Source of the DNA: Bacillales bacterium UBA3946
Lineage (GTDB): Bacteria > Bacillota_I > Bacilli_A > ML615J-28 > CAG-698
Assembly: GCA_002385575.1 (NCBI GenBank)
Contig: DGDS01000024.1
Coordinates: 14,315 to 73,993 of the forward strand
DNA length: 59,679 bases
Reading direction: 5' to 3'
In this document: positions 776-32,988 of the stretch, in pieces
Position numbering within the stretch: the stretch's first letter is position 1
Layout: every line of letters starts with the position of its first letter
Translations under genes and position numbers: made by a program
The notes under the pieces: generated by a model
What the model was told of the DNA's origin: nothing
The model's input: the letters and a program-made list of their open reading frames with translations, nothing else
Database searches by the model: none

Positions 776-2803
776 TTGATGCGTATTTTAAATATCGGCA
801 GGAAGGTGTTGATCGCGTTCCTGGCGGTCTCTGTGTTGCTTTTTGTTATTCCGGCGAAAACCGTCAAAGGCGCTGAGGAAGAGAAGCGGACCTTTGAATT
901 CCGGGGCGCCTGGGTCGCTACCGTAACCAATATCGATATTGGAAAACAAAGCGGAACTTCCGCGGCCGCGATCGAAGCCTACAAACAGGAATTTCTGCGG
1001 ATACTCGATGTTTTCGAGGAATACAACCTTAACGTCGTGATCTTCCAGGTCCGGCCCTTGAACGACGCCTTTTACAAATCCTCAATCAACCCGTGGAGCC
1101 GTTTTTTGACCGGCACCGAGGGGCTTGATCCCGGTTGGGATCCGATGGCATGGATGATCGAGGAGACGCATAAGCGGAACATGGAGTTCCACGCCTGGAT
1201 GAACCCCTACCGCGCTTCTTTGGAAGCCGTTCCAATCCATGGCGATTACGAGGCTCAAAAACTAGCATATCTGGCGACGCTGGACGATAAGAACTTCGCG
1301 AAACAAAATCCTGACATGCTCGTCAGGGGCGTTCACGACAGCAGCACCGGTATGGCGCGCCTGCTTCTCAACCCAGCGCGGCCGGAAGTGCGCCAGCATA
1401 TCCTGAATACGATATCCGAAGTCATTCATAAATATGACGTTGACGCCATTCATTTTGACGACTATTTTTATAACGGCGTTGATGCTTCCGAGGACATGGC
1501 CGATTACAACCAATACAAACAGGCCGGCGGGAAGCTTACCCATCGCGACTGGCGTTGCGAGCAGGTAAACATCCTGATCGAGGGCATTCACGACCTGATC
1601 GAAAACCTTAATGACAAACTTGGGAAAAAAGTCGAGTTCGGCATCAGCCCGGCCGGCGTCTGGGCGCCCGGTCCGAGTTGCCCCGCTCCGTACGGCCAAC
1701 CGGGCGGTATGGAAGGACTTCAGACGTGCTACAGCTACAGTTCGTACGTCGATCTCTACGCCGACACGCGTAAGTGGGTCAGGGAGGAATGGATTGACTA
1801 CATCCTTCCCCAGAATTACGGTTCCTTCTATCGTCCCAACCATAAGGTCATCACCTCATGGTGGGCGAACGAGGTTAAGACAACGAGCGTGAAATTATAT
1901 ATCGGGCTTGCGCCGTATCAGTACAATTCCTATAACGACGGTTGGGATATTCCCGACATGAGCGACCAAATGGATTGGGGCTATTCGTTTGATACGGTCA
2001 GCGGTTTTTCGATGTACAACATCACGAACCTTAGAAGGTCGACCAATGACAAAATGCGCGTCGCCCTGAACAACCTGAAGACGCGCTGGAACGAGCCGGT
2101 GTTCCTACCGATGAAGGAGATCAAGACCGTTTCCGCCTATAACCAGCCGGAGATCACGATCGACCGGAACAATCAGTTCACGACCCTCACCTTTGCTCCG
2201 AACGAAGGCGCCTACGCCTATGCCGTATACCGCGCGAAGGGGTCCGGAACCTTTAATCTCGCCAATGCGAAGATATTTGACATCGTCTATAACCGCGACG
2301 AGCCGATGCGCATGGAATACGCTTCGGAACGGGATAAGACCTACCAGTATTACATCAGGACCCTGTACGCCGACGGGACGTTCGGCGACGACATATTGCA
2401 CATCACGGTCGACCCCTATACCTATAACGCCGCCCCGGAACTGAAAAACGTTTCGCTTGGCATTTCACTATTGGTCGTGCCGGGGAAGACGATGCTTGAG
2501 ATCAGCGGCGAGGTGTTCGACGCGGACGGCGACCCATTGACCGTTACGATCAAGCCCAGCACACGGATCTTATCCGAGCAGACGCTTACAAACGTCACGG
2601 GTGAATTCGTGAAGGAGATCTACATTCCCGACCTGTCGTTTAACCGGGTGTATTTCACTATTACCCTAAGCGACGGAGTGGAATCGGTGAGCGTGCGGAC
2701 CAGGCCGTTTTACGCCCCCGCTAGTAATTATTCGCTGCTGGAACAGCATATGATAACAATGGAGATCATCACTAACGATACGGTGGAGAGAATATACAGA
2801 TAG
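776..2803 (+). CDS. Secreted glycoside hydrolase-like 10 (GHL10/DUF187, YngK-like) protein with C-terminal Ig-like region
   Basis: N-terminal signal peptide (RKVLIAFLAVSVLLFVIPAKTVKG). FRGAWVATV..NID, FQVRP..DAFY, EFHAWMNPYR and IHFDDYFY motifs fit the GHL10 family. The start is TTG 776 or ATG 779, because an in-frame TGA lies at 770. Confidence 0.8.
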   Translation: MMRILNIGRKVLIAFLAVSVLLFVIPAKTVKGAEEEKRTFEFRGAWVATVTNIDIGKQSGTSAAAIEAYKQEFLRILDVFEEYNLNVVIFQVRPLNDAFYKSSINPWSRFLTGTEGLDPGWDPMAWMIEETHKRNMEFHAWMNPYRASLEAVPIHGDYEAQKLAYLATLDDKNFAKQNPDMLVRGVHDSSTGMARLLLNPARPEVRQHILNTISEVIHKYDVDAIHFDDYFYNGVDASEDMADYNQYKQAGGKLTHRDWRCEQVNILIEGIHDLIENLNDKLGKKVEFGISPAGVWAPGPSCPAPYGQPGGMEGLQTCYSYSSYVDLYADTRKWVREEWIDYILPQNYGSFYRPNHKVITSWWANEVKTTSVKLYIGLAPYQYNSYNDGWDIPDMSDQMDWGYSFDTVSGFSMYNITNLRRSTNDKMRVALNNLKTRWNEPVFLPMKEIKTVSAYNQPEITIDRNNQFTTLTFAPNEGAYAYAVYRAKGSGTFNLANAKIFDIVYNRDEPMRMEYASERDKTYQYYIRTLYADGTFGDDILHITVDPYTYNAAPELKNVSLGISLLVVPGKTMLEISGEVFDADGDPLTVTIKPSTRILSEQTLTNVTGEFVKEIYIPDLSFNRVYFTITLSDGVESVSVRTRPFYAPASNYSLLEQHMITMEIITNDTVERIYR

Positions 2804-8520: not shown

Positions 8521-10491
8521 GTGAACTGTCATTTTTCTCAACATTGCGAAAGAATGCTTGCGTCCGTCATGGGCGGAAAACAAAGATTTGGAATTGCTGG
8601 AAGCGAGGCGCTGCTTTTGGCGATCCTGCGCTCCGAAAATTCGGCGTGCCGGCACATCCTGAACGAATACGGGATTAACGAACGCTATCTCGAAGATGAG
8701 CTCGACCAACTGACGGTGCTCAGGAAACGTAACATTCCCGACGGAGGCACGGCGAAACTTGCCGAGATCATCAAAAACGCGGCCGCCCTCGCCATGAGTG
8801 AAGAGAGCCGGATGATATTTGAAGAACACCTTTTTTACGCGCTTTTGACAACGCCTTCCTCGCTGGCCATCGATATCCTCCAGAAGGCGGGCGCCGACAT
8901 CGAGGACCTGATCGAGGAGGTGAACAACATTTATAATTTCGCCCCGAGCGGAGAACTGAACAAGAATTACCTCGTCAACCTGACCAAGGAGGCGAAACTC
9001 GACCGCCTCAATCCCTTCATCGGCCGCGCCCACATCATTGACAAGATCATCCGCATCCTGTCGAAACGGCAGAAAAACAACCCGATGCTGATCGGCAGCG
9101 CCGGGGTCGGAAAAAGCGCCCTTGTGGAAGGAGTGGCGATGCGGTTTCTGGAGACGAACCCCGGCGTCAACATCTACCGCCTCGACCTCGGGATGATTAT
9201 TGCCGGCACGAAATACCGGGGCGATCTCGAGGAGCGGATGATCGAGGTGATGGAGAAGATCAAGAACCCGCACTCGATCGTCTTCATCGACGAGATACAC
9301 AACATCGTCGGTTCCGGTTCAAGCGAGGGCACGCTTGACATCGCCAATATCCTGAAGCCGATCCTCGCGCGTTCGGAGATCAAATGCATCGGGGCGACGA
9401 CCCTGGAAGAGTATTATCGCTATATCGAGAAAGACAAGGCACTCGCACGGCGCTTTCAGAACGTCTTCGTCGAGGAGGCTTCGCCCGAGGAAACTTACGC
9501 CATCATCAAGGGGATCGCCTATAAATACGAGGAATACCATCGCGTGAAGTACAGCGACCGGGTCCTCAGATACATCGTCACTTCATCCGGCTTTCTCTCC
9601 AACCGGAAGCTGCCGGATAAGGCGATCGACATTCTCGACGAGGCGGGGCTGCTGTGCCGGATGGGAAACCGCATGTATGTGGACCATGCCGACGTCGACA
9701 GGATCGTTTATGAAAACCTGGGGATCGATTATGATGAAATCAGCGGCGGAATAAACAGAATCAAAAACTATCATTTCCTAGAAAAATACTACCAGCAGTA
9801 TTTCATGAACCTCGGGTTAAGGAAGACGATCCTTAACGTGCAGACCGCGGAAGCGAATCTGGATTTGTTTCTTGAGGACTTACGGCAGGTTTTCCGGATC
9901 AAGGACGAGATGATCCTGACCCTCGATCTGGGAAAGTTTTCGGAAAGCCACTTCACTTCCTCGCTCATCGGTTCGCCCGCCGGTTACGTCGGCTACGAGG
10001 ATGGCGGAATCCTCACCGAACATGTGCTGAAATTCCCGCTTTCCGTCGTCATAGTTAAGAATTATGGGCTTGCTAATGCGGTCATCATCAAGCAGATCGA
10101 AACTATCCTCCGCGACGGGAAGATCGTCGATTCAAAGGGACGGACGATTTCCTTCCAAAACTGCTTCTTCGTCTTCATCGAGGAGGAAAAAACCAAGCCG
10201 ATCGGTTTCATCGCCTCCGAAAGGAAAAGCGCGAAGATCAACGCTTATATCGACGAGGAACTTCCCGAAATCACAAACTGCGGTTATTACCGGGAAAAGC
10301 TCGACGACATCCTTGCCCGGCTCCGGCAATACGGTTATCACATCTCCGTCGACATCAAGGCGATTGATTACCGCCTCTACCGGCAATTGCTCAAGGAACT
10401 GAGCGATTTCGATAATTTCCGTCCCCATCAACAATACACATATCGGATCAATAAAAAGCGCGAACTGGTGAAAACAGCGAAACGAAGCTGA
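8521..10491 (+). CDS. ClpA/ClpC-family AAA+ protein: Clp_N repeats plus intact D1 plus degenerate D2
   Basis: Two Clp_N-like repeats are present. D1 has Walker A GSAGVGKS, pore loop KYRGDLEER and Walker B IVFIDEIH. The D2 region keeps LIGSPAGYVGYEDGG but lacks a P-loop and a DE Walker B. An IGF tripeptide lies at 10201..10209. GTG start with GAGGTG upstream. Confidence 0.85.
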   Translation: MNCHFSQHCERMLASVMGGKQRFGIAGSEALLLAILRSENSACRHILNEYGINERYLEDELDQLTVLRKRNIPDGGTAKLAEIIKNAAALAMSEESRMIFEEHLFYALLTTPSSLAIDILQKAGADIEDLIEEVNNIYNFAPSGELNKNYLVNLTKEAKLDRLNPFIGRAHIIDKIIRILSKRQKNNPMLIGSAGVGKSALVEGVAMRFLETNPGVNIYRLDLGMIIAGTKYRGDLEERMIEVMEKIKNPHSIVFIDEIHNIVGSGSSEGTLDIANILKPILARSEIKCIGATTLEEYYRYIEKDKALARRFQNVFVEEASPEETYAIIKGIAYKYEEYHRVKYSDRVLRYIVTSSGFLSNRKLPDKAIDILDEAGLLCRMGNRMYVDHADVDRIVYENLGIDYDEISGGINRIKNYHFLEKYYQQYFMNLGLRKTILNVQTAEANLDLFLEDLRQVFRIKDEMILTLDLGKFSESHFTSSLIGSPAGYVGYEDGGILTEHVLKFPLSVVIVKNYGLANAVIIKQIETILRDGKIVDSKGRTISFQNCFFVFIEEEKTKPIGFIASERKSAKINAYIDEELPEITNCGYYREKLDDILARLRQYGYHISVDIKAIDYRLYRQLLKELSDFDNFRPHQQYTYRINKKRELVKTAKRS

Positions 10492-10509
10492 GGCTTCGTT
10501 TTTATTTTG
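10481..10509 (+). terminator. Intrinsic terminator after the clp-like gene
   Basis: ACGAAGC-TGAG-GCTTCGT followed by TTTTTATTTT. The stop codon sits in the loop. Confidence 0.7.
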
Positions 10510-10576: not shown

Positions 10577-10585
10577 TGATATAAT
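10577..10585 (+). promoter_or_regulatory. Extended -10 promoter element TGATATAAT upstream of the helicase-like operon
   Basis: Exact TGnTATAAT in an AT-rich intergenic region, 65 nt upstream of ATG 10650. Confidence 0.45.
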
Positions 10586-10649
10586 ATAAAAAAAAGGCGA
10601 TAACGATATTAACTGCGCGTAATTTACCCATAATATATAAGGTGAGACG

Positions 10650-13600
10650 ATGATCAGCATTAGTCGAAAAAACGGGCATTTAACCGATATCTTCGCAGCC
10701 GACAGTTACCTGGAACTTGGCAACATCAATTACGACGTGTTGGTCCGGTTGCTTAACTATGAAATCGTCGATTACGAAGATATCACATATTTCCCGATCC
10801 AGAAACATGGCGTCGGCAGCAGCGAGATAAAGGATGACCTTTTACGGAAGAAGTTGCCGTTTTTGTTTTTTGCGAATATAAATCGTAAAAACCGCAATCT
10901 CCAGCTGTTCATCACCTACGGGTTGCTTACGCTTAAGAATAAACAGAACCGGGAAATTTTCAGTCCCGTCGTCTTGATCCCCGTGAACATGTATTTTGAC
11001 GGCGATAAGATCTTCTTCCAGCAGATCGCCAAACCGATCGAAAACCAGATCATGCTGAGTTATGTCAAAAAGACGAAGAACATAACTCTCGCGATTCCCG
11101 ACAAACTTGACAAGCTTTCCGATCTCGATAATTATTGTTTGTATTTACAGAAGGCAACGGAGTGCGACCTGCATCTGGAAAACTATCTCACCTACGCCGC
11201 GATTGTTCCCGACAAGGTAAAGATCAGGAATAACAAGTTCCAAAGATATACGGAGACGGGCGAATACTTGCATGACAAACTATTTGCCCCGGACGCGGAG
11301 GACGTTTATTACGCCGCCCCGCTGAACCGCGAGCAGCGTCATGCGGTCCACAGCGCCAACAGCGGCGCGAGCATCGTCATCTCCGGCCGTCACGGCACCG
11401 GTAAAACCACGACGCTGATCAGCATCGCCATGAACGCGATCAGGCAGAAGAAGCGCGTCCTCTATGTCTCCAACATGGAGGAAACGCTGGAACAGGTATA
11501 TCAGTTTTTCGAAAAGAACAACCTCCATCAGCACGCGGCGCGGCTTTACCAGTCGTTTGCGGGGCTATACCAGAAGGAAAACGCCACGCCCCTGGCCGAG
11601 CCGGCGGAATCTGATGACTTTTCGCTCCTTTACGAAAACTACGAATTCATCGACCGCTACCAGAAGGCAATCAATAACCGCATTCTCGATTACCGCTTTA
11701 TCGAGGTCGCGAACGAGTTACTCATGCTGTCCCTGCACGAAGCGAAGATCATTCCGATCGACGATCTATCAAACATTTACAAATACGAGTTTCTCGAAGT
11801 CGTGAAGGCGCTGGAGATCATCCAGGCAAACCTCGAAAACATCAGCAGTTTCAAGGAAAGCATCTGGAAAGACATCCCCATTTTCAATAACATCAAGTAT
11901 CCCAACCAGATCATCGCCTTGATTTACCAGGTCGAGCAGTGTTTTAAAATCCTCGAATCCGAGAAAATAATCCTGGAAAACGAGCACGGTTTTCGGGAAA
12001 TCAGCAACTACGCCTATCTGAAAAACGCCATCCAGAAATACATCAACTTCGATCCAAACGAGATTCCCCAGTCGTGGCTGGATCCGGAAAAGTTCGAGGA
12101 TGCCAAGGACAAGTACCGGCTCTTGAAAAACGACATCTACCAGCTGCAGGAAGAAGAGTACCTGCTTAACGTCCGTTACAACAAACTTGAAACGATCGAC
12201 ATCGACGCGGAAATCAGGGCGCTCCTGGGCGGTTATTTTACTTTCGAGGATGCGGACGCGATTGACAGGATCCTGGCGGACCGCGATGAGCTGGAAGGAA
12301 AGCTCAGCCGCGCCGCCCTGCAGTCCGATATTTACAAAAAATCGATCACCAAGATCAAATACCTGCTTAACTGGCAGTTCACTATTGACAACAACATCCT
12401 CGACGAGATAACACGGCTTGAGGAAGTTGTTAAGGAAATCGAGTTCAACCGGACGATCGTCAACATCATTATCAAGGAGCGTTTTCCCGCGGTCTTCAAC
12501 CAGGCGCTCGACATTGCGAAGAACATCGAGTCGGCGCAGGAGGAAATCGCCGGACTGGTGCGAGTGTTCGCGAAGAAGGATATTTCCGGATTGGAAGCGA
12601 CCGTCGAGGCCCTCGAAAATTTCAACAACGGCCAACCGGTGAAACGCGGCGAGTACCGGCTGTTTTCCGGGTTGAAGGAAAATAACTACAAGGAATACGT
12701 CCGGATCACCAAACTGGCCCGTCGGTTCCGGGAATTGCGCGCCGGGATCAAGACGCTGGAAAATCACTTCCTCGCGCTCACCGGATACGAATACGACGCC
12801 GAAGCGTTGTATCAGATGAATTACCTGTACTTATATTTCGCAAGCATCAAAAACCCGATGATCAAGAGCAAGCTGGCGAAGTTTCTGATCCGCGTCACCG
12901 AGGGCAGCGTCCATAAGAACTTCCGCCGCACCCTGGCGTTGTTCTCGCAGGCCTATCTGAGTTTGAACGAGTACTACGGGACGCTTTCCGAATACGGGCT
13001 GGCAACCGGCACGGAGGAATTCGCGGCGCGGGTCGAGGAGATCAACAAGGCGAACGATTACCTGCTCCGGCTTTTCGCTTCCAACGACCGGCTTTTGGCC
13101 ATGTGCCGGACCAACAAGTACAAATACGCGGCGGCGGAGGAGTACTTCCGGATCAAGAATTCCCTGACGTTCGTCGCCGAAAAACGTCGGGCGCTGCGCG
13201 GCCACCGGCTTTACCGCCAGCTCTTCGGGAAACACTACCGCGAAAGCCAGACGAACATCAACAACCTGGCGCGATTGATGCAGAATTACAAATTGTATAC
13301 GGAATGCTTCGTCGATAACGACGCCACGGTAAGAAGCCTGGCGCCGGAAATCCATGCGGAAATCCGGAAACACCTTGCGATCTGCCAGGAGGAGACGGAG
13401 CGGCTGAACGAGATCTTTAAATTATACTTCAAGATCTTCCGCGACGGCGTTTCCCGGTATTATTACGAACCCTTCCGGAGCAACCTCGATTACCTGAAAA
13501 AACTGTCCGAGGCCAAGGACGAGTTGATCACTTACCTGACGATCACCGACAATTTCGCGATCCTGAACAAATACCGGCTTTCAAGATTGATCAACTACAT

Positions 13601-14915
13601 CATCAACGAGCCGCACCAGAACCGCTTCGTGAATGATTTTAAATACACGTATTTTTCGATGCTGCGGGAAATGCATCTGCGGGAGGCGCCTTATCTGAAG
13701 GAGTACCTCGATCTTCCGCAGCGGCTTTCGACCGTTTGCGCGGAAGAGGAACGCCGGATCGCCCATATCCAGACCGACACGGCGCAGCGCATTCGCAAAG
13801 CGAGCGGTACGCGCTTTTACGTTTACGGCGTGAAGAACCTTGATTACAACGGCTTCATCAGAAGGACGGAAGGGATAAAACACCTGTTTCTTTCGACGTC
13901 GCTTACGGTCAACCTGTTCGTGAACGTGAAGCTCTTCGACCTCGTCATCATCGACGACGCCCATCTGCTGAACGCCGAGGAATACAAGGATGCGCTCGAC
14001 GGCTACCAGCTCGTCATCGCCGGCGAGCAACAATTACAAAGCGCCGTCACCAACAACCTCCTCGCCCGCATCCATCCGAGCCGGATGATCCAGTTCTCCT
14101 ACCGGTTCACGCCGACGCCGATGAACGTCCTTGCGCATCTTCCGGGCTTGCGCGGACAGTTTTACAACAACTTTTACGAAAACTTCGGAATCGACGTCAA
14201 GCACGACAGCCTCACCGAACTCGTGTACCAACTGCTGAAGGAAAATCCGGGTTGCGTCCTCAACGTCTTCATCTCGTCGCCCGCCGCGCAAAGGAAGTTT
14301 TACGAGGAACTGGCAGCCTGTCTGCTGGAGATGGGATACGATGCGGAAACGATCATTACCCTGCTGACGCGGAACATCAATATTTCCTGCCTGTCGCTGG
14401 CGTACGTGTATGACGCCGATTATAACATCCTCTGCCTGGAGGATTATTACGACATCGACCAGGAATACCTGGTCTACGACATGATCGACAACATGCTTCT
14501 GTGCCGGAAACAGGTCATCATCTATGACGAGTACGACCGGTTGGGGCAGGGGCACGATTCGCTCTTTATGCGCAAACTACGGTCGGTCATTGATAACAAG
14601 ATCACCTTTAAGAAGGACTTCTCATCGCCGCTCGTCCAGCAGATCGCATCTAAACTCGAACGACAGAAATACATCGTCTACAGTTCCAACGAATTGACGC
14701 TGCTGGTGCGGGATAAGAACAAACTGTACGGGGTTTTGTTATTCTGGGATATCGATAAATCCAATTTTGATATAATCAACGACTATCGGGATATCTACGT
14801 CCTGAACAACAAGAACAATTTCAAGACGATTATCGTGTGGGCGATGGAATCCTCGGTCGATGATATTGTGAAAAAGATCGTTGAGGAGATTGACGATGGC
14901 GAAACGCGGAACTAA
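10650..14915 (+). CDS. Giant DUF4011-type SF1 (Upf1/DNA2-like, AAA_11/AAA_12) helicase-family protein with degenerate catalytic motifs
   Basis: The N-terminal region LQLFITYGLLTL..REIFSPVVLIPV fits the DUF4011 pattern. Walker A is GRHGTGKTTT (aa 246-255). An ~820-aa helical insertion follows. The Walker B-like motif is LFDLVIIDDAHL (aa 1095-1106). Motif III is GEQQL instead of GDxxQLPP. The FSYRF motif is present. The C-terminal ~80 aa resemble an MTES/Vsr-like nuclease fold without its acidic residues. RBS AAGGTGAG. Confidence 0.8.
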   Translation: MISISRKNGHLTDIFAADSYLELGNINYDVLVRLLNYEIVDYEDITYFPIQKHGVGSSEIKDDLLRKKLPFLFFANINRKNRNLQLFITYGLLTLKNKQNREIFSPVVLIPVNMYFDGDKIFFQQIAKPIENQIMLSYVKKTKNITLAIPDKLDKLSDLDNYCLYLQKATECDLHLENYLTYAAIVPDKVKIRNNKFQRYTETGEYLHDKLFAPDAEDVYYAAPLNREQRHAVHSANSGASIVISGRHGTGKTTTLISIAMNAIRQKKRVLYVSNMEETLEQVYQFFEKNNLHQHAARLYQSFAGLYQKENATPLAEPAESDDFSLLYENYEFIDRYQKAINNRILDYRFIEVANELLMLSLHEAKIIPIDDLSNIYKYEFLEVVKALEIIQANLENISSFKESIWKDIPIFNNIKYPNQIIALIYQVEQCFKILESEKIILENEHGFREISNYAYLKNAIQKYINFDPNEIPQSWLDPEKFEDAKDKYRLLKNDIYQLQEEEYLLNVRYNKLETIDIDAEIRALLGGYFTFEDADAIDRILADRDELEGKLSRAALQSDIYKKSITKIKYLLNWQFTIDNNILDEITRLEEVVKEIEFNRTIVNIIIKERFPAVFNQALDIAKNIESAQEEIAGLVRVFAKKDISGLEATVEALENFNNGQPVKRGEYRLFSGLKENNYKEYVRITKLARRFRELRAGIKTLENHFLALTGYEYDAEALYQMNYLYLYFASIKNPMIKSKLAKFLIRVTEGSVHKNFRRTLALFSQAYLSLNEYYGTLSEYGLATGTEEFAARVEEINKANDYLLRLFASNDRLLAMCRTNKYKYAAAEEYFRIKNSLTFVAEKRRALRGHRLYRQLFGKHYRESQTNINNLARLMQNYKLYTECFVDNDATVRSLAPEIHAEIRKHLAICQEETERLNEIFKLYFKIFRDGVSRYYYEPFRSNLDYLKKLSEAKDELITYLTITDNFAILNKYRLSRLINYIINEPHQNRFVNDFKYTYFSMLREMHLREAPYLKEYLDLPQRLSTVCAEEERRIAHIQTDTAQRIRKASGTRFYVYGVKNLDYNGFIRRTEGIKHLFLSTSLTVNLFVNVKLFDLVIIDDAHLLNAEEYKDALDGYQLVIAGEQQLQSAVTNNLLARIHPSRMIQFSYRFTPTPMNVLAHLPGLRGQFYNNFYENFGIDVKHDSLTELVYQLLKENPGCVLNVFISSPAAQRKFYEELAACLLEMGYDAETIITLLTRNINISCLSLAYVYDADYNILCLEDYYDIDQEYLVYDMIDNMLLCRKQVIIYDEYDRLGQGHDSLFMRKLRSVIDNKITFKKDFSSPLVQQIASKLERQKYIVYSSNELTLLVRDKNKLYGVLLFWDIDKSNFDIINDYRDIYVLNNKNNFKTIIVWAMESSVDDIVKKIVEEIDDGETRN

Positions 14916-15474
14916 AAAACGATTTTTGGAATTCGTCAAATGCGTGAAACAGGATCCGCACCGCTATTTTTACATCAAAAGCACGTTGATAAAACTCAAG
15001 GAGTCCGAGGTTGATATCAACACCCAGGTCTCCGGCGGCGCGACGCTGTTGCATGTGGCGATGAAGCTAAACAACCTGAAACTGTTCAACCTCTTCATCA
15101 AGTCCGGGGTCAACATCAACCTGGCTAACGAGGCGGGAGAAACGCCGTTGCATCGCGCCGTCATCGAGAACAAGACGGGGTTCATCAAAAGCCTTGTGAA
15201 CAACGGTTGCGATCTCAACCTCGGCGGCGAATTGGAACAGACGCCGCTCCATCTCGCCGTGATCAACGGCAATCTCGACATCGTCAAATACCTGGTCGAT
15301 CACGGGGCGGAAATCATGGTGATCGACGAGCTCAACAACCTTCCGATCGATTATGCGATCGACGAAAAAGACGTTAAGATCATCAAGTATTTCCTGACGA
15401 AACAGGATGTCGACGACACAAGAATGGAAAAAATCAAAATAATATTAGAGGAAGCAGGTGAGCAACTTGTTTGA
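14896..15474 (+). CDS. Ankyrin-repeat protein
   Basis: 3-4 ANK repeats (GATLLHVAMK..., GETPLHRAVIENKTGFIKSLVNNGCDLN, EQTPLHLAVINGNLDIVKYLVDHGAE). ATG 14896 has GAGGAG 7 nt upstream. It overlaps the preceding ORF by 20 nt. Confidence 0.85.
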   Translation: MAKRGTKKRFLEFVKCVKQDPHRYFYIKSTLIKLKESEVDINTQVSGGATLLHVAMKLNNLKLFNLFIKSGVNINLANEAGETPLHRAVIENKTGFIKSLVNNGCDLNLGGELEQTPLHLAVINGNLDIVKYLVDHGAEIMVIDELNNLPIDYAIDEKDVKIIKYFLTKQDVDDTRMEKIKIILEEAGEQLV

Positions 15475-16273
15475 TTTCAGCCGATTAATCGAAAATTTAC
15501 GGGAGTACACGAAGGACTTTTCTGCCTGGGGCATCATCCGCCTGATCCTGGACTTACTGCTGGTAATAGCGTTCTTCTACATGATGTACCGGATCCTGCG
15601 TACCCGGGCCCAGGGCTACCGGGTATTCCTTCTGATCTTCATCATCGTCGCGATTTACCTATTAAGTTTTCTTTTCGAGCTTTCGATCTTCCTGAAGCTG
15701 CTCGAATATGTCTTCTTCTGGGGCTTGGGGATCTTCATCATCGTTTACAACCAGGAAATCCGGCACGCCCTCGATTTGTTCTTCATCCCCCCGAAAACCA
15801 ATTCGACGTTCTCTTCCCGGGAAGAGAAGATGGCAATCATCAACATCCTGCTGAACACGGTCGATTTCCTGTCAAGGCGGAAGATCGGGGCTTTGATCAC
15901 GATCGAGCGCGAAGACAACCTCAACATCTATATCGAGAAGGCGATCATCCTCAAGGCGGTCGTCTCCCAGGAATTGCTTACGACGATCTTCGCTCCGGGT
16001 ACGGCCTGCCATGACGGCGCGGTCATCATCAGGAAAAACATCATCATGTGCGCCGGCGCATATTTCCCGTCGACCGACAAGTACGACGTCCCCAAGTTCC
16101 TCGGCACCCGGCATCGCGCTGCGATCGGTATATCCGAGCGGACCGACGCCCTGACGATCGTCGTTTCTGAAGAAACGGGCAACGTCTCGGTGGCGATCGA
16201 TGGTCTGATCAATTTGAAGTTATCGCGCGAAGCGCTTGAGGAAATTCTTGACCGACATTTGAATAGCAAATAA
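15458..16273 (+). CDS. cdaA: Membrane-bound diadenylate cyclase (c-di-AMP synthase)
   Basis: 3 N-terminal TM helices plus a DAC (DisA_N) domain: ALITIERED, HDGAVII and GTRHRAAIGISE..DA..IVVSEETG motifs. The GTG start overlaps the ankyrin ORF by 17 nt. Confidence 0.92.
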   Translation: MSNLFDFSRLIENLREYTKDFSAWGIIRLILDLLLVIAFFYMMYRILRTRAQGYRVFLLIFIIVAIYLLSFLFELSIFLKLLEYVFFWGLGIFIIVYNQEIRHALDLFFIPPKTNSTFSSREEKMAIINILLNTVDFLSRRKIGALITIEREDNLNIYIEKAIILKAVVSQELLTTIFAPGTACHDGAVIIRKNIIMCAGAYFPSTDKYDVPKFLGTRHRAAIGISERTDALTIVVSEETGNVSVAIDGLINLKLSREALEEILDRHLNSK

Positions 16274-16279
16274 AACAGC

Positions 16280-16304
16280 GGCGCGGTTTTTTCGCGCCCT
16301 TTTA
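16280..16304 (+). terminator. Intrinsic terminator after cdaA
   Basis: GGCGCG-GTTTTTT-CGCGCC followed by CTTTTAT, 7 nt after the TAA stop. Confidence 0.55.
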
Positions 16305-16340
16305 TAATTATAAACTATCATGTAAACAGTTATGAAATAA

Positions 16341-16385
16341 AAAACCAAGTTATATCAGAAAACATGGATATAACTTGTTTTTTTT
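16341..16385. terminator. Strong bidirectional intrinsic terminator
   Basis: 11-bp stem CAAGTTATATC / GATATAACTTG with a 10-nt loop. It is flanked by an A-run upstream and T8 downstream, so it works in both orientations (cdaA operon and the convergent pseudogene). Confidence 0.8.
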
Positions 16386-16440
16386 ATAGTTTAAAACGGT
16401 TCAGGAAAATCCTTTTGATGCGTAATAATGTTGAGTTTGT

Positions 16441-17453
16441 TTATTCTTCTATCACATTGAAATAAGTGCGAAAGAATATATCTGCGCTATTCCAAATAAT
16501 CGGCACGGCAATACCATTGCCATATGTCAGGCCTTGATTTTTCGGGCAAGATAAATAATCAGTATAGATTACCGCATCATAATAACCAATTAAAAGAGAA
16601 CTAATCAAACTTGTTTTAACAGTGTACGGAATAAAAACCGCCTTTAAATTCAGACAATTATCAATGATTGAATCATGTGGTATTGCAATAACTTCTAAAG
16701 ACGGCATCGAACGGAAGCCATTAACGTCTTTAAAGCGCTGCCGCTTTCAAAAGAAATTGATTTCAAGTATTGGACGTTAACAAATGCCTGAGTACCGATG
16801 CTTTCTACTTCCTTGGGAATAATTATGCTTTCGTTTTTATTCCCACGCGGATATAGTATTAGCGTCTTCATATCTTTGCTATATAAAACCCCGTTTTCAT
16901 CCGTAAGTGCCTTCGACTATCCAATTGACAGTATATTTCTTTGCTTCAGCAATAAATTGGGCAATATATACTTGATCGCCGCTTACCGGTGTGATTTCCG
17001 GAGACCAAGCACTAAAAACGTATGAATATTCATCGGTATCTTCTTTAGTTGGTGTTGGTTCATCATATGTTGGCGTCGATCCCCATTCAACTTCAGTATC
17101 AACTTCCAATATTTCGCCATTATCGTTTTTCCATGTAATCGTATAGCGATTAATTTCCCATTTAGCGTACAGTGTATAGTCTTTATCAATTGTTATAGGC
17201 CAATCTACTTTCCGGGTAAGATCTTCATCGTAGTACCAATCCATGAACGTATATCCGTCAAGTTCTGGTTCGGATGGCTCGGATACCGTTGAATTTAAAC
17301 GTTCCGTAATCGTGTCGACGTTCGATCCGGGAAATGTTTCAAATCTGATAGTTCGATATTCTTCTGTTTGTGATGTCCAGTCACAACTTGTAAGAATGGC
17401 TAAAAGAACATGATAATAAAAAATGTGTGAAAAGACGTCTTTTTCTTAAGCAT
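16441..17453 (-). pseudogene. Decayed surface lipoprotein gene (Listeria-Bacteroides repeat plus BspA-type LRR) with at least 3 frame breaks
   Basis: ATG 17453 has a GGAGAA RBS. The signal peptide MLKKKTSFHTFFIIMFF hits TAG, while the lipobox LAILTSC continues in another frame. The 115-aa ORF carries YTITW..GSTPTYDEPTP..YVFSAWSP (Flg_new-type repeat). Frame-shifted pieces read DENGVLYSKDMKTLILYPRGNKNESIIIPKEVESIGTQAF and NGFRSMPSLEVIAIP (BspA-LRR). Confidence 0.8.
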
Positions 17454-17717
17454 ACCCTTATTCTCCTATCTGTTATTGCTTCATTTTGCGTTTTTTTATC
17501 ATAACATTATATAAACCAACACGTTTCCTGGAAAAAACCACTGTTATTATATTATAATTATTGTAAAAATCTTCAGGAATAAATGAAAAGGTGTCTGCGT
17601 TGGACTAACGCCATCGGAATGATTCCGCTTTATTGCCGGACCCCTGTTGATACGAAGAAATGCCTGATTTACCGGGACAAGATTAATTTTCTGGGGCCGT
17701 GAAAAACAAAAATCCGC

Positions 17718-17746
17718 TTGCATTTTCCGGCGGAACGTGATAAAAT
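17718..17746 (+). promoter_or_regulatory. Sigma-70/SigA-type promoter for the tRNA-Leu/tRNA-Arg cluster
   Basis: TTGCAT, 17-nt spacer, TAAAAT, ~16 nt upstream of tRNA-Leu. Confidence 0.65.
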
Positions 17747-17762
17747 ATTAAAGCGAATATTT

Positions 17763-17845
17763 GCGGGTATGGCGGAACTGGCAGACGCGCTAGACTTAGG
17801 ATCTAGTTCTTCGGAGTGCAGGTTCAATTCCTGTTACCCGCACCA
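17763..17845 (+). tRNA. tRNA-Leu (anticodon TAG), CCA encoded
   Basis: Acceptor GCGGGTA/TACCCGC, anticodon loop CTTAGGA, long variable arm, T-loop TTCAATT, 3' ACCA. Confidence 0.92.
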
Positions 17846-17914
17846 TTTTTTTGTATTCGTGCGATTTAAATTGATTTATCCGAGGATTTTTGATATAATA
17901 TATATAGTTGCCAC

Positions 17915-17991
<77 letters not shown>

Positions 17992-18096
17992 TTTTTATGT
18001 AAAAACGAAGCAAGAGTGCATACTTTTGCTTTTTTCTTTTTGGTTTTGTATTTATTATTAAGATATGTTATAATAATCGTGTTAAGAGGTGTATGG

Positions 18097-18480
18097 ATGA
18101 AAATAGCCTTGATTTCCCATAACAAAAAGAAGAAGGACATCATCGAGTTTGCGCGCCAATACCGCGCCTTCCTGGAACAGCACGACCTTTTCGCCACGGG
18201 GACGACCGGGCGGATGATCATGGAACAAACGGACCTGCCGATTCATGCTTTTAAATCTGGGCCGCTGGGCGGCGATCAAGAGATCGGCGCGAAGGTCGCC
18301 GGCGGGGAAATAGACATGGTGATTTTCTTTCGCGACCCCTTGACCGCACAGCCGCACGAGCCCGACATTAATGCCTTGTTACGTCTGTGTGATGTTTATG
18401 AAATACCCCTGGCAACAAACAAAAATACCGCCGCCTTATTGATAATTGGCAGTTGCACAAAAGGAGAAGGTTTATGTTGA
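18097..18480 (+). CDS. mgsA: Methylglyoxal synthase
   Basis: [45 protein letters not shown] is the canonical MgsA pattern. RBS AAGAGGTG. The upstream ORF extension overlaps tRNA-Arg and is rejected. Confidence 0.92.
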
Positions 18481-20018
18481 ACCAGATCGTCCAATTCATC
18501 ATTGAAAACAAGTTCACCCTGCTCATCCCGATTTTGTTCGCGACGGTGCTGCTCTTACTGGACACTTTTTCGAACAGGAACCGGCTCTCAATCGTCGGGC
18601 TGATTTTGTTTGCCCTGGCGCTAGCTGGCTTCATCGTCATCATCATCAAGGACATCAAGATCCTGAAGATCGATCTGGCGCTTTTCGTGGCCGCAGTCGC
18701 GCTGCTGTCCTTTTTCTATAACAGCGGCACATACGCCAAGGCCTCCTACCGGTACAACAAGATCGCAAGCCTGATCATCGCCTTGCCGTCGAACGTGGAA
18801 AGCCAGATCTACATGTATCTGGACACCAGGTCGCGGTTGTTGATTTATACGAGGCAGTTTTACGCGCTCTTTGCTGATTTTAACATGGACAAAAAGAACT
18901 GGCACAAATACCTTAGCCACGTAGTGATCAACAACATCGAATATAATTATAAGCAATTTTTGAAGTATTTATCCGCCACCGAAGAACAGAATTACAAGAT
19001 CGAGTTCGTCTTTAACAACGAGTACATCGTTCCGGTGCAGTTGAACAAGCAAAAAGTGACCGACAGCGGAAAACTCCTCGGTTACGTGATGATCAACCAG
19101 GTGCTCACGCTTTCGGAAATATACAAGGAAACCGTAAACAACGAATACCGGAAACGACAGCATATCTACCTCGACCTTTTGGGCGAGCCGATCATGTATT
19201 ACGATTTCGTCCGGAACCGTTACATCCTCAACTCGTTGATGTGCCGGCTGCTGGGGATCGAGGAAAACGAACTCCCCATCGCCGTCTTCGAACAGCTGAT
19301 GCATGAGGAAGATAAAAAGGCGCTTGCGGAGCGGCAGGTCCATTCCGACCGCGTCGAGCGCCGGGTTTACCGTCTGAGAACGATCAACGGATATGATTGG
19401 TTCGAGGAAAGCGCGGTCGAGTTTGAAAACCGCCAGTATGTCGTCCTCTACCGTACCGATTTCTCCACGGTCAAACTGGATTATTATAACTATGTCAATC
19501 TGATCGACGATTTGAAAGCCCGGGAAGATTTCAACTTCATCCTCATCATGATCGCCATCAGGGACATTCCGGAAATCACGGAAAAAGCGGGAAAGGACGG
19601 CTGTGAGATCGTCGTGTCCAAGTACTTCCGGAACCTTGCCTCCTATACCGGGGAAACGCGGAGAATATACAAGGTCGGACAGATCGAATATGCGTTGGTC
19701 ATGGATGACGGCGATATGTTCGACCTGATCGTCCGCGACCTCGAGAACGGGACTTCCGGATATCTCGGGGACGAGATCAATCTGAACGAAGCGCGGTACA
19801 TCCTGCGGAACGCCGTCGGCATCGTGAAATCGCAGACCGTGGTGGTCCAGACGGCCGAAAGCGTCGTGAAGGCGGGATTCGACGCGCTGAACCTGGCGTC
19901 TGATGAGAAATATATGAAACGTTACAGCGTCTACCAGGCGAAAAAGCCTGTCGAAGACCCGAGTCATTTCGACATCGACCTCAGCGACGATTTCCTCGAC
20001 AAGCTGCTTAAGGAATGA
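18474..20018 (+). CDS. Membrane protein with PAS-like region and catalytically degenerate GGDEF-like domain
   Basis: RBS AAGGAGAAGG before ATG 18474 (ATGTTGA overlap with the mgsA stop). There are 3-4 N-terminal TM helices. The C-terminal GGDEF-fold pattern has GQIEY in place of GG[DE]EF. Confidence 0.78.
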
Positions 20019-20701
20019 CCATGTTCGAAGTCATACTGGTGATGGCGGGATCCGGCCGCCGCGCCGGCCTGCCCTATAACAAGAACCTCCACATCATCAA
20101 GGACAAACCGCTGTTCCGCTACGCGCTGGAAACATTTTTATCACTTCCCCAGTGCCGGCGGGTGATAATCGTAGCGGCGGAGCGCGACATCCCCAAGGTT
20201 TCGGTTGCGTTGGATGACATTCCTGACGATAAAATAAAGATCATCGCCGGAGGCGCTACCCGCCGTGAAAGCGTCTATCGGGGGCTTCTCCTGACGGAAA
20301 GCGAAATCGTCCTAATCCACGATGCGGCGCGGCCGCTTGTGCGCGAGGAACACATCATCGCGGTGTACGAAGCGGCACGGGAAAGCGGGTTGTCCGCCCT
20401 TGCGGTCAAAGCCACCGACACGGTCTACCGCGTCCGCGGGAACGAAGTAGAACTTCTTGACCGGGATGAGTTGTGGCTGATGCAGACGCCGCAGGGAGTC
20501 AGAAGATCCGACCTGCTTTCGGCGTATGCAGCGGGGGCGGCGGATTGGACCGGTATAACCGACGACGTCGGTATCGTAATGAAAAAAACCGGCCTCAGGC
20601 CGATATTCATCGAAGGAACCCCCGGTAACATCAAGGTGACGTACGCGGAAGATTTGCGTTTCGTCGCCTACATGATCGAGCGAGGTCAATATGGAATATA
20701 G
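20015..20701 (+). CDS. ispD: 2-C-methyl-D-erythritol 4-phosphate cytidylyltransferase
   Basis: VMAGSGRRAG N-terminal motif, IHDAARP, MQTPQG. ATGA overlap with the upstream gene. Confidence 0.9.
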   Translation: MTMFEVILVMAGSGRRAGLPYNKNLHIIKDKPLFRYALETFLSLPQCRRVIIVAAERDIPKVSVALDDIPDDKIKIIAGGATRRESVYRGLLLTESEIVLIHDAARPLVREEHIIAVYEAARESGLSALAVKATDTVYRVRGNEVELLDRDELWLMQTPQGVRRSDLLSAYAAGAADWTGITDDVGIVMKKTGLRPIFIEGTPGNIKVTYAEDLRFVAYMIERGQYGI

Positions 20702-21191
20702 AATCGGGCATTCCCGGGACGTGCACCGTCTCGTTTCCGGCCGAAAACTCATCCTGGGCGGGATCGCGATCGATTACCCACTTGGTCTGGAAGGGCATTC
20801 CGACGCCGACTGCGTTTTGCACGCGGTCGCGGAAGCATTGATTGGCGCCCTCGGTCTGGGGGATCTGGGAACGCATTTTCCCGATACCGACCCACGTTAT
20901 AAGGACATGGCTTCCGATTATTTCGTCGCGAAGGCGCGGGAAATGCTTGAAGCGCGGGATTACGGCATCATCAATCTCGACCTTACCGTCTTCCTTGAAA
21001 AACCGCATCTTGCACCATATAAGGAGCGGATGCGTGCGCAAATCGCCGGCTTGCTGGGAATCGCGCCTGCCGCGGTCAATGTCAAAGCCACTCGCTACGA
21101 AGGCCTGGACGCCATCGGTAGGGGCGAAGCGATCGCCTGCGAGTGCGTGGCGCTGATAAAAAAAACGGCGCCGGTGAAAAAATATCTGTGA
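20691..21191 (+). CDS. ispF: 2-C-methyl-D-erythritol 2,4-cyclodiphosphate synthase
   Basis: IGHSRDVH..GHSDADCVLHA..DLG.HFPDTDP motifs. 11-nt overlap with ispD. Confidence 0.93.
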   Translation: MEYRIGHSRDVHRLVSGRKLILGGIAIDYPLGLEGHSDADCVLHAVAEALIGALGLGDLGTHFPDTDPRYKDMASDYFVAKAREMLEARDYGIINLDLTVFLEKPHLAPYKERMRAQIAGLLGIAPAAVNVKATRYEGLDAIGRGEAIACECVALIKKTAPVKKYL

Positions 21192-21686: not shown

Positions 21687-21775
21687 AGTCTCACCTCGAG
21701 GGTTATTATAATAAAAAAGTAAAAAAATATACATTATTCCTGTTTTTACAACTATATATTAAAGAGGAGATGCAG

Positions 21776-22435
21776 ATGAAGTTGCGCAAGTTCCGGATCC
21801 TGTTTAAGACCGCGGTTTTTGTCGGGTTGTTCGTCTTTATCGTGAGTTTTGTTAGCGGGTATTTTTCCGAACGGGTGAAGATGTACGTCGCGCAGAAGGC
21901 GCAACTGGTGGCGTCGGACCTGATGTCGGAAACGATCAAGACCGACGTGCTACCCTACATCAATCTCGATAACCTTATCAAGTTCGTCACCGATGACGAA
22001 AACAAGGTGAAGAGCATTTTCGTCAACACCTATCAGGTCAATCAGATCGCCGCGCAGGTATCGGGAAGGCTGGCTGCGTTGCTTCGGAGTTTCGAAGGCA
22101 GTGAATTGAAGAGTTTAGAGTTACCGCTGGGGATAATTCTTTCCGACACCTTGTTCGGGTCGCGGGGTCCGGCCATCGCCATCCGGATCTTCCCGGTGGG
22201 AAGCGTGGTCGTGGACGTTGTGAGCACGTGCGAAAACCACGGGATCAACAATACGCTCCTGACGGTCGCCGTGACCGCCCGGGTTGTGTTTACGGCGATA
22301 ATTCCCCTCCAGAAAAACGAGGTGGAGGTCGATGTGTGGATCCCGCTCGTCGTTCACATCGTCCAGGGAGAAGTCCCCCGTTATTATTACGCAAACAAAG
22401 ATAGCGAATTCATCCCACACCCGATTATCGAATAG
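21776..22435 (+). CDS. yunB: Sporulation protein YunB-like
   Basis: An N-terminal TM segment, then the YunB-family pattern (LPLGIILSDTLFGSRGPAIAIRIFPVGSV, GINNTL, IPLVVHIVQGEVPRYYY). AGAGGAG lies 6 nt before ATG 21776. ATG 21770 is also possible. Confidence 0.72.
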   Translation: MKLRKFRILFKTAVFVGLFVFIVSFVSGYFSERVKMYVAQKAQLVASDLMSETIKTDVLPYINLDNLIKFVTDDENKVKSIFVNTYQVNQIAAQVSGRLAALLRSFEGSELKSLELPLGIILSDTLFGSRGPAIAIRIFPVGSVVVDVVSTCENHGINNTLLTVAVTARVVFTAIIPLQKNEVEVDVWIPLVVHIVQGEVPRYYYANKDSEFIPHPIIE

Positions 22436-25137: not shown

Positions 25138-25200
25138 ATTATTTCCGCTGCCCCGTCATATTTTTTCCTTTCCGGTAATAAGTTGGAAATAGGTGAAAAA

Positions 25201-25890
25201 ATGAAACGGACGGCAACGACCATTATAAATCTGGTTTTCCTGCTTGTTTTATGCTTAACATCGGCCGGGACGATAATCGCAAGCAAAAGATTAGCGGCTC
25301 CGGCTTTGATTTACCTTGATCCCGGCCATGGCGGGGCGGACGGCGGGGCCGTCGGCGCCGACGGAACGGCAGAGAAGGACATCGTCCTGAACGTGTGTTG
25401 GAGTTTGCGGGCATATCTGGAGAACGCCGGCTTCCGGGTCAAGATGACCCGCACGGGCGATTATGACCTCGCCCCCGCCAATTCCCATAATCGTAAGCGC
25501 GACGACATCCACCGACGGTGCGATCTGATCGACGCTTCCGATTGCCTTTTCTACCTTTCGATCCATGCGAACAAATTCTTCGCCCCAAGCGTCCGCGGCG
25601 CCCAGGTTTTCTATAACAAAAACCGGTCGGAGGCAAAGGAACTGGCGGAGGCAATCCAGGAAGCGCTCGGCGCGATCCTTAAAAACACGCGCCGGTTTGC
25701 CAAGCCGATCGGCGGGAAATACTTGATCGATAACGTTAAGAAAACGGGTTGCCTGGTCGAGATCGGATTTTTATCAAACCCGGAGGAAATAGGCCTGCTC
25801 AAGGACGCCGCCTATCAGGAACGGATGGCGTACGCCATTTTTACCGGAATCATGACGTATTTTGAAAACCGCGCGCCGATACGCGCGTAA
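25201..25890 (+). CDS. cwlD: N-acetylmuramoyl-L-alanine amidase, CwlD-like (Amidase_3)
   Basis: An N-terminal TM segment, then LDPGHGGADGGAVG..EKDI..MTRTGDYDLA..RKRDDI..R..SIHAN...GAQVFY..EIGFLSNPEE, the CwlD-type pattern. RBS AGGTGA before ATG 25201. Confidence 0.82.
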   Translation: MKRTATTIINLVFLLVLCLTSAGTIIASKRLAAPALIYLDPGHGGADGGAVGADGTAEKDIVLNVCWSLRAYLENAGFRVKMTRTGDYDLAPANSHNRKRDDIHRRCDLIDASDCLFYLSIHANKFFAPSVRGAQVFYNKNRSEAKELAEAIQEALGAILKNTRRFAKPIGGKYLIDNVKKTGCLVEIGFLSNPEEIGLLKDAAYQERMAYAIFTGIMTYFENRAPIRA

Positions 25891-31906: not shown

Positions 31907-31926
31907 ACGAAAAAGGGGGAGTTCGC

Positions 31927-32928
31927 TTGGCGAGACCGGAGAAACCGAACATATCCGTCTACGAGCTGGACGCTTCCGGCAAGTATGTCAAGAGCCGGGA
32001 GAGCGAACCGGCGATCGCCGTTCAGGACTCCGCCATCGTCACTTCCGAAATGTCCGAGGAAAAAGCCCGGATCCTGCGCGGCAACCCCTTCATGTATAAT
32101 CCGGAAACATCCGCGGTGTCCGTCTACAGTCTTGAGGACTTCCTCGTTACCTACAAGAAAAAGGAATACGTCCTCGGCGACGTCATCAGGAATCCTGCCT
32201 TTCCCCTCCGGATCCGGAGGAAGATCTTCAAAAAGAACTTCAAGGCCTGGCACAAGGACTATGTGAAGAATAAACGGCGGGTATTCCGGGAAAACTACCG
32301 CACCGTCGAGGTCGTCAAAAGCATCGGCAACGTCAAATTCTCCATCTACGTCGAACTGGCGATCTGGGCGATGCTGGTGGCGATGGTGTTTATCACCGGC
32401 ATCGATTCTCCGCTTTGGGAAAGGATCGCCCAAGGACGGTTCGGATTGTTCATGAAGACAACGCTTACGGCGATGTATGCTTCGGCGTCATGGCTGCGGA
32501 TCGTGGCCAACATCAGCATCTATCTTCTCGTCGCGTTGATCTTCTATTCGCTGTTTTTCCGGCTGATCATCAGGGACTATCGCAAGTATTACCGCGCAGC
32601 CCATGATTACTTGGACAGATCGGAAACCAAGATCAACCGCGATTATAAAAAGAAAAGGAAAAAGGCATACCGATATTACCTACGCTATCTGAAGAAAAAT
32701 GCCTCCATGTACTATCCCCCGCTTGACATCAGTGAAGTCCAGGAGGGCGAGGTCAATATCAGGGTGTTTGATATCGTAAGCAAAGCGACGGTAAACAAAT
32801 CATACCGAATAATGAAGTGGGAACCCTTTTTGAAAATCACCAAGACCGCATTGCTATTCCTGAGCATTGCCGGACTGGTCATCGTTTACGGCTACGGCAT
32901 CGTTTACGTGATTATCGCTGCACTATGA
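31927..32928 (+). CDS. Hypothetical polytopic membrane protein
   Basis: TTG start with AAGGGGGAG RBS. ~135-aa soluble N-terminus, then 3 TM helices, a basic loop (KKKRKKAYRYYLRYLKK) and a final TM. Confidence 0.68.
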   Translation: MARPEKPNISVYELDASGKYVKSRESEPAIAVQDSAIVTSEMSEEKARILRGNPFMYNPETSAVSVYSLEDFLVTYKKKEYVLGDVIRNPAFPLRIRRKIFKKNFKAWHKDYVKNKRRVFRENYRTVEVVKSIGNVKFSIYVELAIWAMLVAMVFITGIDSPLWERIAQGRFGLFMKTTLTAMYASASWLRIVANISIYLLVALIFYSLFFRLIIRDYRKYYRAAHDYLDRSETKINRDYKKKRKKAYRYYLRYLKKNASMYYPPLDISEVQEGEVNIRVFDIVSKATVNKSYRIMKWEPFLKITKTALLFLSIAGLVIVYGYGIVYVIIAAL

Positions 32929-32988
32929 TAAATTGCCAGTTCATAAATTTGCACAACGGACGCCTGCGCGCCCGGGAAAGAGGAAACA

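Follow-up and report, generated by a model that had tools for sequence, protein, structure and literature searches.

In the Bacillota, the diadenylate cyclase CdaA, which comprises three transmembrane (TM) helices and a DAC domain, is encoded in the cdaA-cdaR-glmM operon of Bacillus subtilis and Listeria monocytogenes and in dacA-ybbR-glmM of Staphylococcus aureus. A second diadenylate cyclase gene of B. subtilis lies in the cluster ctsR-mcsA-mcsB-clpC-radA-disA-yacL, which is followed by ispD and ispF. In that cluster radA, disA and yacL are consecutive (PMC6755099), radA and disA belong to the CtsR regulon (PMC10633939), and RadA is reported, in a title cited in PMC6755099, to affect DisA activity. 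CdaM of Mycoplasma pneumoniae and Mycoplasma bovis is a diadenylate cyclase of the Mollicutes lineage that works without CdaR or GlmM. We analyzed a stretch of 59,679 nucleotides (hereafter the window) from contig DGDS01000024.1 of Bacillales bacterium UBA3946, in which cdaA forms an overlapping unit with a gene for a 1421-residue helicase-like protein, here given the working name BIG, and a gene for an ankyrin-repeat protein (ank). This cdaA operon is specific to one lineage, an uncultured clade related to the Acholeplasmatales and represented by metagenome-assembled genomes (MAGs) labelled 'Bacilli bacterium', in which it is inherited vertically. Its organization suggests that BIG, the ankyrin protein and perhaps a downstream membrane protein, C0, are lineage-specific partners or regulators of CdaA, and thereby a new control of cyclic di-AMP (c-di-AMP).

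The three genes of the unit are as follows, all coordinates here and below being window positions.

10650..14915, plus strand: BIG gene, open reading frame (ORF) of 1421 residues
14896..15474, plus strand: ank, ankyrin-repeat gene, ATG start, 192 residues
15458..16273, plus strand: cdaA, GTG start, 271 residues

The ank ATG at 14896 lies 20 nt ahead of the BIG stop codon, and the cdaA GTG at 15458 lies 17 nt ahead of the ank stop codon. An alternative ank start, TTG 14881, is found upstream of the ATG. Shine-Dalgarno-like purine runs (AAGGTGA, GAGGAG and AGAGGAAG) are present 5' of the BIG, ank and cdaA starts, respectively. The three genes form one transcription unit and, because their stop and start codons overlap, are probably co-translated. 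An earlier note on this DNA, made from the letters alone, had proposed these three overlapping ORFs with starts at ATG 14896 and GTG 15458, and had named the products of the last two an ankyrin-repeat protein and CdaA; all the coordinates hold, and both identifications are borne out by the family models described below.

The linkage of the genes was followed by a pattern search using one genome per GTDB species, which returned 67 loci with a BIG homologue. Two of these end before cdaA could appear and were left out of the counts, leaving 65 informative loci; the six-frame ORFs of the loci were searched with the window proteins, and starts were then assigned. BIG is followed by cdaA on the same strand in 65 of the 65 loci, with ank between them in 61, so that the adjacency check proposed in the earlier note comes out in favor of a fixed arrangement, down to BIG homologues only about 16-20% identical to that of the window. 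Such distant homologues belong to a deep subclade (loci L041-L067) composed of Anaeroplasma, 'Mollicutes' and 'Staphylococcus sp. CAG:324' type MAGs, in which the gene order holds. The junction between BIG and ank ranges from -20 to +6 nt and is overlapping in 51 of 61 loci, and that between ank and cdaA ranges from -26 to +18 nt, with an overlap in 39 of 60. Independent gene calls with precomputed Pfam annotation gave the same order in L068 and L070. Among the informative loci BIG was never found away from cdaA, and BIG-(ank)-cdaA is the one block that is never broken, while its flanks show losses, inversions and insertions. The locus is single-copy, core and vertically inherited, lies in a housekeeping context, and has a GC content like that of the neighboring genes. 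In four species (L031, L038, L054 and L062) ank is cleanly absent and cdaA begins 2-60 nt after BIG; ank is therefore dispensable, while the BIG-cdaA linkage is universal.

An apparent cdaA without BIG (L069; GCA_900198705.1, FZPS01000079.1) proved to be an artefact of scaffolding and was discarded. The 1.6-Mb 'contig' that carries it consists of short contigs chained by 100-N runs, and its gene neighborhoods are meaningless.

The product of the third ORF is, as judged from its sequence, a bona fide membrane-anchored CdaA with intact catalytic motifs. It scores 206.6 bits with NCBIfam TIGR00159 (cutoff 188.8) and 130.7 bits with Pfam DAC (cutoff 27). Pfam CdaA_N matches at only 17.3 bits, under the cutoff of 23.8; hydropathy analysis places three N-terminal hydrophobic helices within residues 20-97, which equal the three TM helices of the family. 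The DAC domain keeps the motifs HDGAVII, RHRAAIGISE (GTRHRAAIGISE) and SEETG, which are at least 95% conserved in 65 orthologues. Scores with the DisA model (23.4 bits, cutoff 201) and with the CdaM family of NCBIfam (123.5 bits, cutoff 225) fall short of the cutoffs. CdaM, a single-TM-helix enzyme in a separate NCBIfam family for which no helicase-like or ankyrin partners have been described, thus differs from the CdaA of this locus.

BIG has no TM segment and is cytoplasmic. Its full-length homologues, about 90 proteins of ~1380-1446 residues, are all hypothetical proteins of 'Bacilli bacterium' or Acholeplasmataceae MAGs; clustered at 50%, the family has about 100 representatives, and the next-best proteins are set sharply apart from it (E about 5e-9 and weaker). 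Pfam recognizes only the P-loop region of BIG, with DEAD at 36.5 bits and AAA_11 at 23.9 bits (cutoff 27); AAA_12 gives no match, and neither the DUF4011 nor the MTES_1575 model matches at E<=0.01. An AlphaFold2 (AF2) model of residues 222-1421, computed from a 75-sequence alignment with a predicted local distance difference test (pLDDT) of 86.8, comprises a RecA1 domain split by a ~750-residue all-helical insertion, followed by RecA2 and, at the C-terminus, by a small alpha/beta domain. The insertion is positioned between motifs Ia and II. A Foldseek search of the PDB with this model returned SETX/Sen1, IGHMBP2, Upf1, Aquarius, Dna2 and nsp13 (prob 1.0, E down to 4e-6), and a profile search of PDB sequences with BIG returned IGHMBP2 (E 1e-10) over motifs I and II. 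The modeled fold is that of an Upf1-like helicase of superfamily 1B (SF1B), with two RecA-like domains.

The nearest outgroup proteins of BIG carry Pfam DUF4011, AAA_11, AAA_12 and MTES_1575, with or without DUF3320. An hhalign comparison of the BIG family with these helicases gave 99.9% and E 6.7e-34 over 1241 columns, aligning BIG 9-1434 to 18-1464. Because this profile-profile alignment runs end to end, BIG is a full-length derivative of the DUF4011-AAA_11-AAA_12-MTES_1575 helicases, and its domains can be laid out in the following order.

BIG domains: DUF4011-like N-terminus, SF1B RecA1, ~750-residue helical insertion, degenerate RecA2, degenerate MTES/restriction endonuclease (REase)-like C-terminus

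With the DUF4011 helicases, DUF3320-bearing or not, BIG shares full-length homology, the order of the domains and the helical insertion between motifs Ia and II. It differs from them in lacking DUF3320, in that no Pfam family model reaches threshold, and in its motifs. The Q motif and the Walker A motif GxGK[TS] are invariant in 60 orthologues. Motif II reads FDLVIIDD[AG]H in 60 of 60 orthologues and FDLVIFDEASQ in the outgroups, so that DEASQ has become DD[AG]H, an Asp-Asp Walker B from which the catalytic Glu is gone. Motif III is AGE.Q in the subclade of the window and still FGD in the deeper subclade. Motif V (QG.E.D; VQGDERD in the outgroups) falls in a gap of the alignment and is deleted in BIG. 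Motif VI of the outgroups, GGERRLNVAITRAK (RRLNVA.TRA, with the arginine fingers), aligns to ..N.id.LLLCkkK, and the REase or nuclease residues of the outgroups (a conserved D, CDG and DRDRLR) are replaced as well. The description of this protein in the earlier note, as ATP-binding and otherwise degenerate, thus fits: Walker A is kept, and motifs II, V and VI and the nuclease residues are degenerate. Across about 100 clusters at 50% identity, a length of ~1380-1510 residues and the nucleotide-binding motifs are under strong purifying selection. This conservation of length and nucleotide pocket argues for a functional pseudo-enzyme rather than a decaying one, which we infer to be a switch or scaffold and not a motor. 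BIG is also fixed in the cdaA operon, whereas DUF4011 helicases are scattered or near defence hotspots; one of Pseudomonas aeruginosa is a core gene beside such a hotspot, without an assigned function (PMC10250203).

The ankyrin protein matches Pfam Ank_2 (86.2 bits), Ank (82.8 bits) and Ank_4 (77.6 bits) over residues 52-173, which corresponds to about 4 tandem repeats of the 33-residue ankyrin type. It is without a TM segment, hydrophobic segment or signal sequence. A conserved motif, DE.N..P.DYAIDEK, is located at its C-terminus and is a surface motif.

Neither in the window nor in the related loci examined was a YbbR (cdaR) or glmM gene found after cdaA, in agreement with the reading of the window in the earlier note, which Pfam supports. 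The genes downstream of cdaA in 60 loci are mgsA (methylglyoxal synthase), C0 and ispD. Pfam detected no YbbR in the C0 orthologues and neither YbbR nor a PGM_PMM domain (glmM) among the 30 other large ORFs of the window or in the independently called neighboring genes of L068 and L070.

C0, which the earlier note overlooked, is encoded downstream of cdaA in 56 of the 60 loci with enough sequence. In the window it lies behind mgsA, an arrangement found in 22 loci of its subclade, and in the deep subclade it adjoins cdaA directly (0-17 nt).

18097..18480, plus strand: mgsA, methylglyoxal synthase gene
18474..20018, plus strand: C0, membrane protein of 514 residues

C0 of the window has no Pfam match. 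Its AF2 model (pLDDT 66.9), computed from a shallow alignment as the homologue search yielded 7 proteins, combines 3 TM helices with two PAS-like domains and one that is GGDEF-like. Foldseek matched this model to DosP, PA0861, PleD, DgcZ and others, and the fold assignment is clear. The GGDEF signature is degenerate, reading GQIEY in the window and SKMEY, SNVDY, EEEVF and others in the orthologues, two of which pass the Pfam GGDEF model marginally. The ~400-residue gene that adjoins cdaA in the deep subclade was considered as a cdaR and rejected, with Pfam showing no YbbR and only a weak PAS. The regulatory half of the c-di-AMP phosphodiesterase GdpP is arranged as TM helices, PAS and a degenerate GGDEF domain. 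C0 resembles this N-terminal half in the same series of elements and in its genetic tie to c-di-AMP metabolism; it is unlike GdpP in having two PAS-like domains, three TM helices and no DHH/DHHA1 catalytic domain, and the likeness noted here is one of architecture. C0 is probably the fourth member of the module, and as a candidate for a membrane regulator of the CdaR kind it is no weaker than the ankyrin protein.

The locus thus shares with cdaA-cdaR-glmM the same CdaA enzyme and a tight operon with non-enzymatic partner genes, of which one putative partner is cytoplasmic, like GlmM, and one membrane-bound, like CdaR. Unlike in that operon, cdaA is the last and not the first gene of the overlapping unit, the partners are unrelated (a pseudo-helicase, an ankyrin-repeat protein and a PAS-GGDEF-like protein), and no YbbR or glmM gene is adjacent in the 65 loci. 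A positional parallel exists with the second B. subtilis cluster. There as here, the series runs from the gene for a P-loop ATPase of the DNA-repair type through that for a diadenylate cyclase to that for a membrane protein, and the cluster of this clade likewise lies between a clpC-type gene and ispD/ispF. The counterparts are not homologous: the cyclase is of the CdaA type and not DisA, BIG is an SF1B protein and not a RecA/Lon-type RadA (19.6 bits with the RadA (sms) model against a cutoff of 403, over the P-loop only), C0 is PAS-GGDEF-like and unlike the PIN/TRAM protein YacL, and an ankyrin gene is intercalated. The parallel may reflect coincidence or displacement in situ, and for such displacement it is a lead, not evidence.

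The signals that delimit the transcription unit in the window are the following.

10479..10502: upstream terminator, after the clpC-like gene, isolating the unit at its 5' side
10577..10585, plus strand: extended -10 promoter element TGATATAAT, a perfect TGnTATAAT
14768..14776, plus strand: second, identical TGATATAAT, inside the 3' end of BIG, 120 nt 5' of the ank ATG
16280..16304, plus strand: intrinsic terminator, GC-rich hairpin then T-run
16341..16385, both strands: bidirectional terminator, 11-bp perfect hairpin between an A-run and a T-run

The TGNTATAAT motif occurs in 10 copies in the window against 0.85 expected from shuffles; the copies, at 711, 10577, 17891, 18066, 22859, 30219, 40661 and other positions, are mostly located just 5' of genes or tRNAs. 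Given this excess and these positions, the extended -10 element is a real promoter type in this genome, and transcription in the host seems to depend on promoters of this type, with weak -35 boxes. Of the single promoter-like element first described for the unit, the position at 10577..10585 stands and its being the sole copy does not, as an identical TGATATAAT is present at 14768..14776. This second copy may be an internal promoter of ank and cdaA, or incidental to the codons for F-D-I-I. Folding supports the two tandem terminators that had been noticed after cdaA. The hairpin at 16280..16298 with its T-run has a folding energy of -13.4 kcal/mol (z-score -2.4), and the hairpin at 16345..16377, with an 11-bp perfect stem, reaches -14.7 kcal/mol on both strands (z about -4.5). 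From its A- and T-run flanks and the equal folding of the minus strand, the terminator at 16341..16385 is taken to be bidirectional and common to the convergent minus-strand ORFs described below. An Rfam scan of the locus returned tRNAs only, with no riboswitch and no other RNA.

The remaining neighbors of the unit in the window are listed below.

8521..10491, plus strand: clpC-like gene (Pfam), a conserved neighbor outside the transcription unit
16386..18096: insertion between cdaA and mgsA, GC about 0.40, lineage-specific and absent from related loci
16441..16707 and 16897..17244, minus strand: ORFs in the insertion
17763..17845 and 17915..17991: tRNA-Leu and tRNA-Arg, respectively, in the insertion
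20015..20701, plus strand: ispD
20691..21191, plus strand: ispF, conserved 3' flank of the cluster

The ClpC-like protein (656 residues) carries Clp_N repeats and two AAA+ modules, the first complete and the second lacking its Walker A part, since the AAA_2 match of the latter begins only at profile position 24. Its gene is directly 5' of BIG in 23 of 52 loci and inverted in 2, and a divergent class II ribonucleotide reductase gene takes this place in 12. On the other side, mgsA or C0 follows cdaA within 0-500 nt in related loci, where other changes downstream comprise insertions of mgsA, tRNAs or transposases. The insertion of the window, of about 1.7 kb, divides cdaA from the remaining genes of the ancestral cluster; within it, the ORF at 16897..17244 has a weak Listeria-Bacteroides repeat match and is possibly a gene fragment. 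An ispD or a fused ispDF gene comes after C0 in 49 loci. Further downstream, genes for YunB, a sporulation-associated family, and for an N-acetylmuramoyl-L-alanine amidase are found at 21770..22435 and 25183..25890, respectively, and a diaminopimelate epimerase gene is present at 1039..1785 of the related locus L070. The GC content of the window is about 52%. The host may differ from typical mollicutes, which are wall-less and low in GC, and this matters for the question of whether GlmM is dispensable. Three consecutive large ORFs (550, 333 and 1039 residues) at 30254..36108 on the plus strand have no Pfam match at E<=1e-5.

On the basis of linkage, the reading we favor, at about even odds, has BIG and the ankyrin protein act on CdaA as partners in the cytoplasm, BIG as a switch or scaffold and the ankyrin protein as an adaptor, with C0 as the membrane sensor. 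We infer every protein-protein contact in such an assembly, and the direction of regulation, as follows. BIG, as a switch or scaffold and not a motor, would bind ATP or nucleic acid. Its contact with CdaA would be at the cytoplasmic DAC domain, bridged by the ankyrin adaptor or, in species without ank, made directly. Docked BIG could then control the productive oligomerization of CdaA. BIG and the ankyrin protein would together take the role that cytoplasmic GlmM has in other Bacillota, and C0 that of the membrane regulator CdaR, in an arrangement that would resemble the RadA-DisA pairing.

Several observations weigh against this partnership. The four species that lack ank show no consistent residue signature in CdaA or BIG, although compensating changes were sought, and in two of them (L031 and L038) both ank and C0 are missing beside cdaA. 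The TGATATAAT copy inside BIG at 14768 could make the expression of ank and cdaA independent of BIG. Finally, gene order is conserved between the window and the most distant subclade over the whole region of 12-20 kb, both subclades sharing the order HflX, clpC-like, BIG, ank, cdaA, C0, ispDF, yunB, nifU, S1, amidase, tsaE/D. Since this collinearity extends across the clade, from the clpC-like gene to ispDF and farther, inherited gene order accounts for part of the linkage.

Inherited synteny is accordingly the main rival. It holds that BIG and the ankyrin protein serve a nucleic-acid or protein-quality-control process, and that their co-transcription with cdaA reflects genome compaction without any complex. 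Besides the collinearity, it draws on the linkage of C0, ispD and ispF, which is almost as tight as that of BIG, ank and cdaA, on the loss of ank without visible change in its neighbors, and on the fact that gene overlaps are common in compact genomes. However, BIG-(ank)-cdaA alone is never interrupted in the 65 loci, both flanks being disrupted, and BIG never occurs apart from cdaA. The stop/start overlaps at both junctions persist over a very deep divergence, and an ankyrin interaction module would be an unusual bystander between two otherwise unrelated genes. We regard inherited synteny without a complex as possible but rather unlikely.

A bolder form of the partnership, to which we give a somewhat lower and tentative standing, would have BIG, the ankyrin protein, CdaA and C0 form one c-di-AMP complex in which the inactivated SF1B helicase senses ATP or nucleic acid, and which arose by displacing radA-disA-yacL in situ. 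If so, this lineage would have merged the 'DNA-status' control of the DisA type with the 'envelope/osmotic' control of the CdaA type, and dropped CdaR and GlmM.

The version put forward in the earlier note, in which the ankyrin protein is a dedicated CdaA regulator replacing CdaR and GlmM while DNA or nucleotide status reaches the cyclase through the helicase-like protein in a DisA-like manner, appears improbable. The conserved, overlapping position of ank just before cdaA, the surface motif of its product, the lack of cdaR or glmM nearby and the location of the locus between clpC and ispDF, where B. subtilis has radA-disA-yacL, all agree with it. Yet the ankyrin protein cannot be the essential link, because four species have BIG-cdaA without ank, and the membrane topology expected of a CdaR analogue belongs to C0 and not to the ankyrin protein. 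BIG has also lost its translocation motifs, and DNA scanning is therefore unlikely. Most improbable by far is a defence-type signaling role by analogy with cyclic-oligonucleotide-based antiphage signaling systems (CBASS), with a helicase-like sensor of foreign nucleic acid activating the cyclase, to which partial BIG matches (PADLOC PDC-S37, 80.8 bits over residues 229-506; NCBIfam ProA, 57 bits) and the known presence of ankyrin proteins in candidate defence systems (PDC-M72A match) could point, but those matches are far under cutoff (1500 for ProA), BIG is without helicase and nuclease catalytic residues, CdaA is a standard housekeeping enzyme without an adjoining effector gene, and the genomic context on which we rejected this role is in every genome that of a single-copy, vertically inherited core locus with housekeeping neighbors of like GC content.

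The earlier note knew of no described helicase-ankyrin-CdaA module, and our full-text literature searches, which covered ankyrin together with CdaA or diadenylate cyclase, Acholeplasma together with c-di-AMP, and Mollicutes together with DAC architectures, turned up none either. CdaA itself is known, as is the concept of regulators encoded in the operon of the enzyme; these partners and the pseudo-helicase are new. The clade thus offers a natural experiment, in which a whole lineage retains CdaA but couples it to completely different partner proteins. BIG is a rare case of a large helicase kept for hundreds of millions of years without its motor and nuclease residues and with its nucleotide pocket retained. 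If the partners regulate CdaA, they would bring ATP or nucleic-acid status into CdaA-type signaling as a new input, give a derivative of the uncharacterized DUF4011 helicase family its first function, and place ankyrin repeats in bacterial housekeeping. Some members of the clade live in the gut or rumen, where the c-di-AMP that they put out is of relevance to STING signaling in the host.

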